In this document: piece by piece, positions 21,627 through 22,384 of the stretch
Numbering within the stretch: the first letter of the stretch is position 1
How the letters are laid out: the number at the start of each line of letters is the position of its first letter
Source: a virus
Lineage: Duplodnaviria > Caudoviricetes
IMG/VR virus record: IMGVR_UViG_3300020576_006644
Span: 1-64,000 of that record
DNA length: 64,000 bases
Direction: 5' to 3' (one strand)
Position numbers and translations under genes: made by a program
Notes under the pieces: model-generated
What the model saw: the letters and a program-made list of their open reading frames with translations, nothing else
What the model was told of the DNA's origin: nothing
Database searches by the model: none

Positions 21627-22274
21627 ATGTTCAGCCAGTTCGGGGTCGGCACCATCACCGAGATAGGGACCAACGACGACGGGATCGTGGCGCTCGTCAC
21701 CTGCCAGCCGGTCGGGGAGGGGCCCTGGCCCGCCCGGGTCAGCTTCCCGAGCTGCGGGCCGAACTACGGCATGAACCTCCCCTACGAGGTCGACGACACG
21801 GTGCTCTACTGCTGCCCGAACGGCGACCCCGGGGATGGCCTGTACATCATCGGCCGCTTCTATGAGAAAGCCGAGCCCCCGCCCAAGGTCATCGTCGACA
21901 ACCCAGACGACGAGCAGTGGGTCGCCAAGAAGGGCCGGCGGCTCGCCATCTGGACCGGCGGCGCCGAGCTGAAGCTGACGAATCAGGTCGACGACGCCCA
22001 GGAGTCCCTGATCGACATCGCCGCGGACGGGACCGTTTCTATAGTCCCGCCACTTGGTAAAAACGTGCTATTGGGTGAAGGAGATGGTGGCGCAGGCCTG
22101 GATTTTTTAGTAAAACGCCCACTTTATCTAGCCCTCGTCGCGTTCGCGAACACTGCGAGCACTGCGACAACCGCAGCCCAAATTGCAGTAGCGGCAGCCA
22201 CATTACTCACGGCTTTACAAATACCCACCCCCGCCAACCCTTCCTCATTGACAACAGTTACGAAGGGGGCGTAG
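21627..22274 (+). CDS. baseplate spike protein (gpV/Gp138-like OB fold)
   Basis: ARVSFP..GPNYGMNLPYEVDDTVLYCCPNGDP..LYIIG motif; AT-richer 3' end. Confidence 0.75.
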   Translation: MFSQFGVGTITEIGTNDDGIVALVTCQPVGEGPWPARVSFPSCGPNYGMNLPYEVDDTVLYCCPNGDPGDGLYIIGRFYEKAEPPPKVIVDNPDDEQWVAKKGRRLAIWTGGAELKLTNQVDDAQESLIDIAADGTVSIVPPLGKNVLLGEGDGGAGLDFLVKRPLYLALVAFANTASTATTAAQIAVAAATLLTALQIPTPANPSSLTTVTKGA

Positions 22275-22296
22275 TATTGTGTTTCTGAACAATTTT

Positions 22297-22384
22297 TGTT
22301 TTGTTAGGTAGGGTGGCGTTTGGTTTGGTACGGTACGCTAAGGTTCGGTCCGGTTTGGCTCGGCCCGGTAAGGTGATCCAAGGG
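22297..22384 (+). ncRNA. GGY-NN pentamer array 1 (putative guide RNA)
   Basis: 14 in-phase triplets 22307-22374 (12 GGY) plus 2 TGT upstream, then GA-TCCAAGGG and a terminator. Confidence 0.75.

Follow-up and report, generated by a model that had tools for sequence, protein, structure and literature searches.

The DNA analysed here (the window) covers the first 64 kb of a virus record that is complete at 112,623 bp and has direct terminal repeats. A 1,026-bp interval between a baseplate spike gene and a baseplate wedge gene contains one gene, vipr; it is flanked on both sides by strong 5-nt-periodic arrays on its own strand (arrays 1 and 3, whose predicted RNAs we call vrRNA1 and vrRNA3). The features of this region, and one array that lies far from it, are as follows.

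21594..22274, + strand: baseplate spike gene, as the longest open reading frame from 21594; eight homologs.
22031..23405, + strand: segment of foreign type, which has alternative ends of spike (3') and wedge (5') with vrRNA1, vipr and vrRNA3 between them, delimited by blastn against the relative L093 and by composition.
22089..22127, + strand: the phage's own sub-threshold spike site for vrRNA1, GAGLDFLVKRPLY, in codon register (8/13 units; 18/26 bases, 0.69).
22248..22277, + strand: sigma-70-like promoter (TTGACA, 18 nt, TAGTAT) that could drive vrRNA1; from a consensus scan only, with 1 found and 0.8 expected in shuffles.
22294..22373, + strand: vrRNA1 (array 1) repeat tract, 16 Y-N-N-K-G units; the guide core is 13 units, 22304-22368.
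22374..22432, + strand: vrRNA1 3' tail, with ATCCAAGG (22376-22383), a 14-bp hairpin (22391-22422) and a U run that together form an intrinsic terminator (terminator scan).
22482..22545, + strand: array 2, degenerate, upstream of vipr and ending in ATCCAAGG.
22554..23171, + strand: vipr gene, 205 aa (phrog_4652; PDB 36pp profile match; AF2 model).
23185..23279, + strand: vrRNA3 (array 3) repeat tract; the guide core is 16 units, 23190-23269.
23280..23335, + strand: vrRNA3 tail, with ATCCAAGG (23282-23289) and a 17-bp hairpin (23298-23335).
23301..24131, + strand: baseplate wedge gene (phrog_43), with its own vrRNA3 site at 23367-23414 (PFGGVVTISILECYPL; 11/16 units; 24/32 bases, 0.75).
36451-36505, - strand: fourth array, with about 8-9 YNNGG units and ATCCAAGGG at its end; it lies at a long distance from vipr, upstream of a gene on the minus strand.

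The true start of the spike gene is probably 21627, because its homologs begin at MFSQ; its match to the Pfam family Phage_base_V is weak and sub-threshold (17.8 bits where the cut-off is 23.8; E 0.0044). In a period-5 self-match scan arrays 1 and 3 gave the two strongest signals, whether the scan covered the window (64 kb) or the genome as a whole (112.6 kb). The sequence ATCCAAGG occurs four times in the whole genome, every time at the 3' end of a 5-nt array. The tail hairpins of vrRNA1 and vrRNA3 fold with -25.8 kcal/mol (z -3.8) and -27.5 kcal/mol (z -3.6), respectively. The wedge start codon (23301) is enclosed by the 17-bp hairpin of the vrRNA3 tail (23298-23335), and therefore the first dozen wedge codons double as guide-RNA tail; vrRNA3 processing and wedge translation may interfere with one another. 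The ATCCAAGG tail of array 2 runs into, and supplies, the AAGGAG ribosome-binding site of vipr. Array 2 has no target above chance (best matches 0.61-0.75, and neither locus nor coordinate stays the same from one length to another), and the fourth array has no tail hairpin and no convincing target, so that it may be a solo or decayed vrRNA. Rfam models gave three chance-level matches on 21500-24000 (E 1.4-8.4), far below their gathering scores, and searches of 50,697 phage records with the locus, by tblastn and by blastn, gave no match.

VIPR (Viral Interference Programmable Repeat) is a CRISPR-like phage weapon, first described in 2026, in which the RAMP protein Vipr forms polymers on a vrRNA that consists of 9-16 YNNGG repeats and an invariant tail; by its "1-nt-skip rule" the NN pairs read double-stranded DNA and every third target base, usually a wobble base, is skipped (bioRxiv 10.64898/2026.04.26.720920). 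Published systems need near-complete, gapless NN pairing, disturbance of which abolished silencing, and the characterised type II VIPR represses transcription only (bioRxiv 10.64898/2026.04.26.720920). The preprints count as a target a gapless NN match of at least 0.8. The structures of the filament and of its R-loop-triplex are given in a companion paper (bioRxiv 10.64898/2026.04.26.720927; PDB 36pp), and a third preprint shows phage-satellite competition via VIPR (bioRxiv 10.64898/2026.10.15.759431).

The 205-aa product of vipr belongs to the Vipr family. It matches no Pfam family; it is a single-RRM RAMP protein with a G-loop (GLGDFRP..GPFGRF), and it has 158 homologs in metagenomes (in IMG/VR there are 144 confirmed places, the best 80 of which were taken as loci). 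Its AF2 model (pLDDT 86) has Csm3/Cas7 chains, the type III CRISPR backbone, as top Foldseek matches (probability 1.00, TM 0.5-0.58). A profile built from 28 family members finds PDB 36pp_D ("SUSP1 Vipr protein"; E 6.2e-12) and pairs positions 4-191 with its 2-188; the GxGD(F/W)RP...FGRF motif is aligned between the two. There is no vap accessory gene, vipr being the only open reading frame with homologs or a credible start signal between 22274 and 23301; its absence does not exclude membership in VIPR, because vap is called "typical" and architectures are varied (bioRxiv 10.64898/2026.04.26.720920). Since vap is missing and this Vipr is only distantly related to the tested SUSP1 protein, VIPR activity at this locus is extrapolated. 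No recognisable nuclease domain was found in Vipr, the sole protein of the cassette, and in this respect the locus does not qualify as a homing endonuclease-type mobile cassette, which needs a nuclease to cut the cassette-free allele.

Read as Y-N-N-K-G from 22304, array 1 has 14 units with the NN series TA AG GG TT TT AC AC AA TC CC TT TC CC AA. The reverse complement of this series is TT GG GA AA GG GA TT GT GT AA AA CC CT TA, and its 13 guide units decode to G-E-(K/N)-G-(D/E)-(F/L)-V-V-(K/N)-(K/N)-P-L-Y. The original prediction had arrived at a wobble-skipping code from the letters of this DNA, and that code is the published 1-nt-skip rule; its NN series, its decoding and the gene letters that it quoted were all exact when re-checked. 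It had further found the decoded series in the upstream spike gene, where seven of the last nine dinucleotides do agree in codon register at 22101-22127 (gat ttt tta gta aaa cgc cca ctt tat), and ttg ggt gaa at 22071-22079 agrees with the first three. The "5-codon indel" that had to be allowed between these two stretches corresponds to a genuine five-codon length difference between two classes of spike allele (alignment A2; below).

Without gaps, the best self match of array 1 at period 3 has 8/14 units at 22086 (8/13 at 22089), in the spike reading frame, and this is the sole site in the 64-kb window, on either strand, that scores more than 6 units. Permutation of the unit order, the test that had been suggested for this match, gives p 0.047 with 14 units and 0.032 with 13. 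At periods 2, 4, 5 and 6, or in the other orientation, array 1 reaches at most 6-7 units and there is no outlier; by hand count, its Y position agrees with the third base of the codon in 4/14 units, a score that is not informative. The self match of array 1 is real but, taken alone, weak, in line with the original prediction; counted base by base it amounts to 18/26, for which the window-wide p is 0.23. That score is also the best that vrRNA1 attains in the whole 112.6-kb genome, where it is tied with 72668. Neither vrRNA1 nor vrRNA3 has a site of at least 0.8 anywhere in the phage's own 112.6-kb genome (the best are 0.69 and 0.75), and the 14-unit pattern of array 1 has no site within 3 mismatches there.

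The eight homologs of the spike protein fall into two allele classes at their C-terminal ends. Class I comprises the window's own allele (P0121, P0127), with site sequence LLGEGDGGAGLDFLVKRPLY, and the diverged forms GTDLDVLVKRPLY and GADLDYLCKKTVY in P0125 and P0126. In class II (P0122-P0124, P0128 and cluster members) the corresponding sequence is AGENGDF(L/V)V(K/T)KPLY and is five residues shorter. A diverged spike allele had been predicted as the target of array 1, and such an allele does exist: cassette-free relatives with GENGDF(L/V)V(K/T)KPLY agree with 11-12/13 units of array 1, against 8/13 in the phage's own gene (the 12/13 of P0124 is counted on amino acids only). These relatives come from Logan, ENA and JGI assemblies and were reached through protein look-ups. 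Base by base, vrRNA1 matches the class II spike genes of L090 (site at 935-973), L091 and L092 at 25/26 (0.96), those of L084 and L093 at 24/26 (0.92), that of L086 at 22/26 (0.85) and that of L085 at 21/26 (0.81), all without gaps and in frame. The class I genes of the relatives L087-L089 match at 16/26, and that of the window at 18/26 (0.69). Whether orthologs fit better than the self allele had been set beforehand as decisive, and they do, with 21-25/26 against 18/26. For the class II loci, 0/300 shuffles reached the observed score (permutation p <= 0.0033 per locus). The view of array 1 as a second, weaker instance of the same rule thus stands as far as the rule goes and fails as to the weakness, because the real target fits at 92-96% and only the self match is weak.

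A perfect 13/13 target of vrRNA1 was not found among these relatives; exact degenerate target patterns had no match in IMG/VR or JGI metagenome contigs, and spike and wedge as single-protein queries in IMG/VR yielded no relatives. A periodic RNA operator of the TRAP type, for an oligomeric RNA-binding protein, is refuted by the ortholog match scores, the Csm3/Cas7 fold and the PDB 36pp match. More generally, a repeat without guide function that binds a protein (a TRAP- or CsrA-like periodic RNA operator, its decoded match being due to chance) would agree with the conserved GGY triplets and their 2-nt spacers, and with the overlap of ATCCAAGG and the ribosome-binding site before vipr. Such an operator can practically be dismissed, since chance cannot account for orthologous genes matching at 25/26 and 31/32 bases (the latter described below), the protein belongs with Vipr/RAMP proteins, and the arrays of the clade vary in length from 8 to 45 units.

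Array 3 bears a parallel relationship to the wedge gene. Against the wedge genes of L084 and L093, vrRNA3 matches 31/32 bases (0.97) or 15/16 units, without gaps; against the phage's own wedge gene it matches 24/32 bases (0.75) or 11/16 units at 23367, with a window-wide permutation p <= 0.001. The own wedge site is thus near the 0.8 cut-off in score. The suggestion that both flanking genes are targeted is borne out here, since array 3 fits, at 15/16 units, the wedge gene of relatives that also match at the spike gene. The NN code fits the alleles of rivals at 92-97% and the phage's own at 69-75%. It has to be asked whether the weaker, own sites are nevertheless the functional ones, weak binding of Vipr-vrRNA to the phage's own late genes serving to tune baseplate expression. 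Nothing in the phage's own genome matches the guides better than these self sites, which are at most 220 nt away from the arrays; yet their scores of 0.69 and 0.75 stand against 0.92-0.97 in the relatives, NN pairing has to be nearly complete and gapless in the published systems, and the own spike site is thrown out of register by the five-codon insertion. We regard self-regulation of this kind as very improbable.

In all the relatives the wedge gene follows immediately on a spike gene of 208 or 214 aa, and VIPR is absent from this junction. One of these, L093, comprises 20.6 kb of a 33-kb contig and runs collinear with the window for about 20 kb, with an identity of 85-95%. By blastn, its homology to the window stops at 22030 and restarts at 23406, so that window positions 22031-23405 (1,375 bp) stand in place of L093 10405-10712 (308 bp), and the arms flanking the cassette are 88.6% and 95% identical to L093. 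The spike target of vrRNA1 (L093:10448-10486) lies inside the replaced 308 bp and the wedge target of vrRNA3 (L093:10674-10721) spans its 3' edge. The cassette therefore brings with it its own, resistant, spike 3' and wedge 5' ends, which are poorer in G+C than the remainder of the genome. The G+C content of 22031-23405 is 43-67% (per 100 bases), below that of the flanks (about 61-75%). The class I spike allele is also present in relatives that have no VIPR (L087-L089).

In the SUSP1 clade, 18 of the 20 targets lie on a satellite with structural-gene homology (bioRxiv 10.64898/2026.04.26.720920), and the true targets here might likewise be satellites or defective prophages with homologs of spike and wedge. 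A search with the spike profile of one genome for each of 185,579 species turned up no copy of the gene, prophage copies included. L093 itself is a full relative, because its 33-kb contig is collinear with the window for about 20 kb at 85-95% and shares many genes with it. We consider satellite or prophage targets to be quite improbable.

Contigs from four public runs (three studies; the runs were examined as contigs only) depart from the window sequence at 22030 and at 23366/23400 and continue there, with 0 mismatches, as the L090-type allele; one run also contains a contig that spans the entire cassette. The same samples therefore contain the guide-bearing form and the form with the matching target. 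In run X12 a loose contig end of 30 nt, at array 2 (22482-22545), is identical (0 mismatches) to the periodic sequence upstream of vipr in L081. The L081 vipr is 94% identical in amino acids to that of the window and has a different gene context; P0003 and P0004 (86% and 79%) have yet another context in common. Near-identical vipr genes (L081, L082 and the window) have differing neighbourhoods and differing guides, and this suggests transfer of the cassette from one phage genome to another.

L093 has a vipr gene of its own (minus strand, 5052-5612), which is 57% identical to that of the window and is inserted at a place that corresponds to the interval from 16812 to 17075 in the window. Its vrRNA matches 24/28 bases of window 17062-17103 (+ strand), wobble-aligned, in the first 14 codons of a 604-aa open reading frame (17063-18877), and 20/28 in L093's own copy of that gene start. 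Because of this difference the phage of the window is likely to be a target of the VIPR of L093. The two phages would thus appear to carry their modules at different places, the guide of each matching the cassette-free allele of the other.

The window and 82 homolog loci together have 167 arrays in the orientation of vipr and about 12 in the opposite one; most are adjacent to vipr, and their lengths range from 8 to 45 units. Among 158 distinct arrays, 13 have a match with permutation p <= 0.01 within 1 kb and 0 farther away, where about 1.6 are expected; ten of the thirteen are in wobble register, as against 39% (0.39) for permuted guides. A permutation test on whole loci gave no overall excess for the 167 arrays (9/167 at p <= 0.05), the signal in the clade being visible only once the local and distal zones are separated. 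An example from an unrelated phage is L061, in which an array at 3058-3142, beside a lambda-type portal gene, spells a portal motif (site L061:2602-2652). This motif, NSSGYNYASGRLDHQTY, is present in 86/120 homologs among the matches listed and is compatible with the L061 guide at 15/17 positions. The portal protein of L061 itself has three substitutions in the motif, by which compatibility falls to 12/17 amino acids (10/17 by nucleotides), and these may be escape changes in an otherwise conserved motif that is spelled by the neighbouring guide. Some members of the clade have 10-16 tandem vrRNAs (L012:3118-3973, L068:330-2183, L046:4588-5376, L048:4617-6450 and L073:1808-3351), which are separated by a constant tail, for example CAAGGCAAGG followed by a T-run. 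AT-rich phages of the clade have TGT-NN units in place of GGC-NN.

With regard to VIPR membership, array 1 (16 units, 13 of them guide) and array 3 (16 guide units) lie beside vipr on its strand; ATCCAAGG follows all four arrays, and in arrays 1 and 3 a stable hairpin comes next; every target site is in frame with the spike or wedge open reading frame that contains it; and gapless targets of at least 80% are present for vrRNA1 (0.81-0.96; L084-L086 and L090-L093) and for vrRNA3 (0.97; L084 and L093). Very probably, then, the locus is a minimal VIPR without vap whose guides are aimed at the spike and wedge alleles of rivals and spare the phage's own, weapon and resistant alleles being combined in one 1.4-kb module.

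The mechanism that we propose is taken from the preprints. Transcription of array 1 would give a vrRNA of about 110-150 nt, with the promoter-like site at 22248-22277 and the terminator at 22391-22432, and vrRNA3 would be transcribed likewise. Vipr protomers would polymerise along the vrRNA, one for each Y-N-N-G-G unit, holding the GGY bases and presenting the NN pairs. The filament would bind double-stranded DNA as an R-loop-triplex in which codon positions 1 and 2 are complementary to NN and the wobble base is skipped, and by blocking transcription it would silence the baseplate genes of the rival. In this way vrRNA1 would be aimed at the region encoding the C-terminal part of the spike in cassette-free close relatives, and vrRNA3 at their wedge gene. 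The phage itself would be spared, because its own spike and wedge ends, with the five-codon insertion and substitutions, score below 0.8. Against silencing as a weapon it can be said that a VIPR+ phage could supply spike and wedge in trans during co-infection.

Beyond the proposed silencing, Vipr-vrRNA binding could itself provoke recombination, the 1.4-kb module then replacing the rival's target segment much as a homing endonuclease gene does with its co-converted flanks. Several of the above observations could be accommodated in this way, namely the exact substitution of the cassette for the target-bearing 308 bp between well conserved arms, the 94% identical vipr in a different context and the P0003/P0004 genes in another, the loose end in X12 that is identical to L081, the presence of both forms in the same runs, and the tendency of the clade's guides to have partial matches within 1 kb. 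The cassette, however, encodes neither nuclease nor recombinase, and repression of transcription is the only activity of the type II VIPR that has been characterised; moreover, selection for tight linkage of guide and resistant allele gives the same anatomy without conversion, and the class I spike allele is found in relatives that lack VIPR. We therefore think such a drive unlikely, even if the idea of a homing-like spread is compatible with the anatomy of the cassette. It is only a tentative proposal, and one that we are inclined to doubt, that the VIPR cassettes of this clade are selfish modules of weapon plus resistant allele which replace the segment their guides recognise, and which might spread by allele exclusion or by an RNA-guided, homing-like conversion.

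VIPR as such is already known, and the linkage of its guides to resistant neighbouring alleles is possibly a new feature of its organisation; in the main texts of the three VIPR preprints we did not find a guide beside the resistant allele of its own target. The locus offers a clean natural example of VIPR among close relatives, in which the guide, the target, the resistant self allele and the exact swap are all visible, and in which cassette and matching target are found in the same environmental samples. The results also point to a pattern in this Vipr clade, whose guides would often have as their targets the alternative alleles of genes beside the cassette, and such targeting of neighbouring alleles bears on how VIPR cassettes move and on how self is spared without a PAM.

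Among the known systems, the cassette is most directly compared with the type II VIPR of Escherichia phage SUSP1 and of a Pseudomonas fulva prophage. Like them it has one small RAMP protein, guides of 9-16 YNNGG units with an invariant structured 3' tail beside vipr and on its strand, one base skipped per NN pair at the codon wobble position, and targets in competing phage-like elements with no self target at 0.8. Unlike typical VIPR it has no vap gene, its tail, unlike those of the two type II systems, is ATCCAAGG plus a simple hairpin, and its Vipr is only distantly related to that of SUSP1 (profile E 6e-12; no tblastn match in the 50,697 phage records). It also differs from published type II systems in that its targets are alternative alleles of the two genes that border the cassette, and in that its own copies of the target gene ends form a resistant allele class within the module. 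The solo vrRNAs of SUSP1-family phages are similar in that their targets are wobble-aligned and in that they fit a rival's homolog better than the carrier's own copy, by which autoimmunity is avoided; they are aimed at the vipr genes and vrRNAs of rivals, and many of their carriers have lost vipr, whereas here baseplate genes are the targets and vipr is intact (bioRxiv 10.64898/2026.10.15.759431).

The class 1 CRISPR-Cas backbone (Cas7/Csm3 on crRNA) has in common with this locus a RAMP fold, a G-rich loop and protomers set along a guide with periodic unpaired positions. It differs in that here a period of 5 nt in the guide corresponds to 3 nt in the target, and in that there are no spacer-repeat array and no adaptation genes, the guides being pentamers on a fixed scaffold. 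Free-standing homing endonuclease genes of the T-even phages (seg, mob) are responsible for marker exclusion and for co-conversion of flanks. Unlike these, the present cassette would recognise its target by a predicted RNA-guided filament and not by a protein nuclease, and no cleavage activity is evident. In other respects the two are alike, each being a small selfish cassette between two conserved genes that is aimed at the cassette-free allele of the gene next to it and has flanks of its own that are diverged and resistant.
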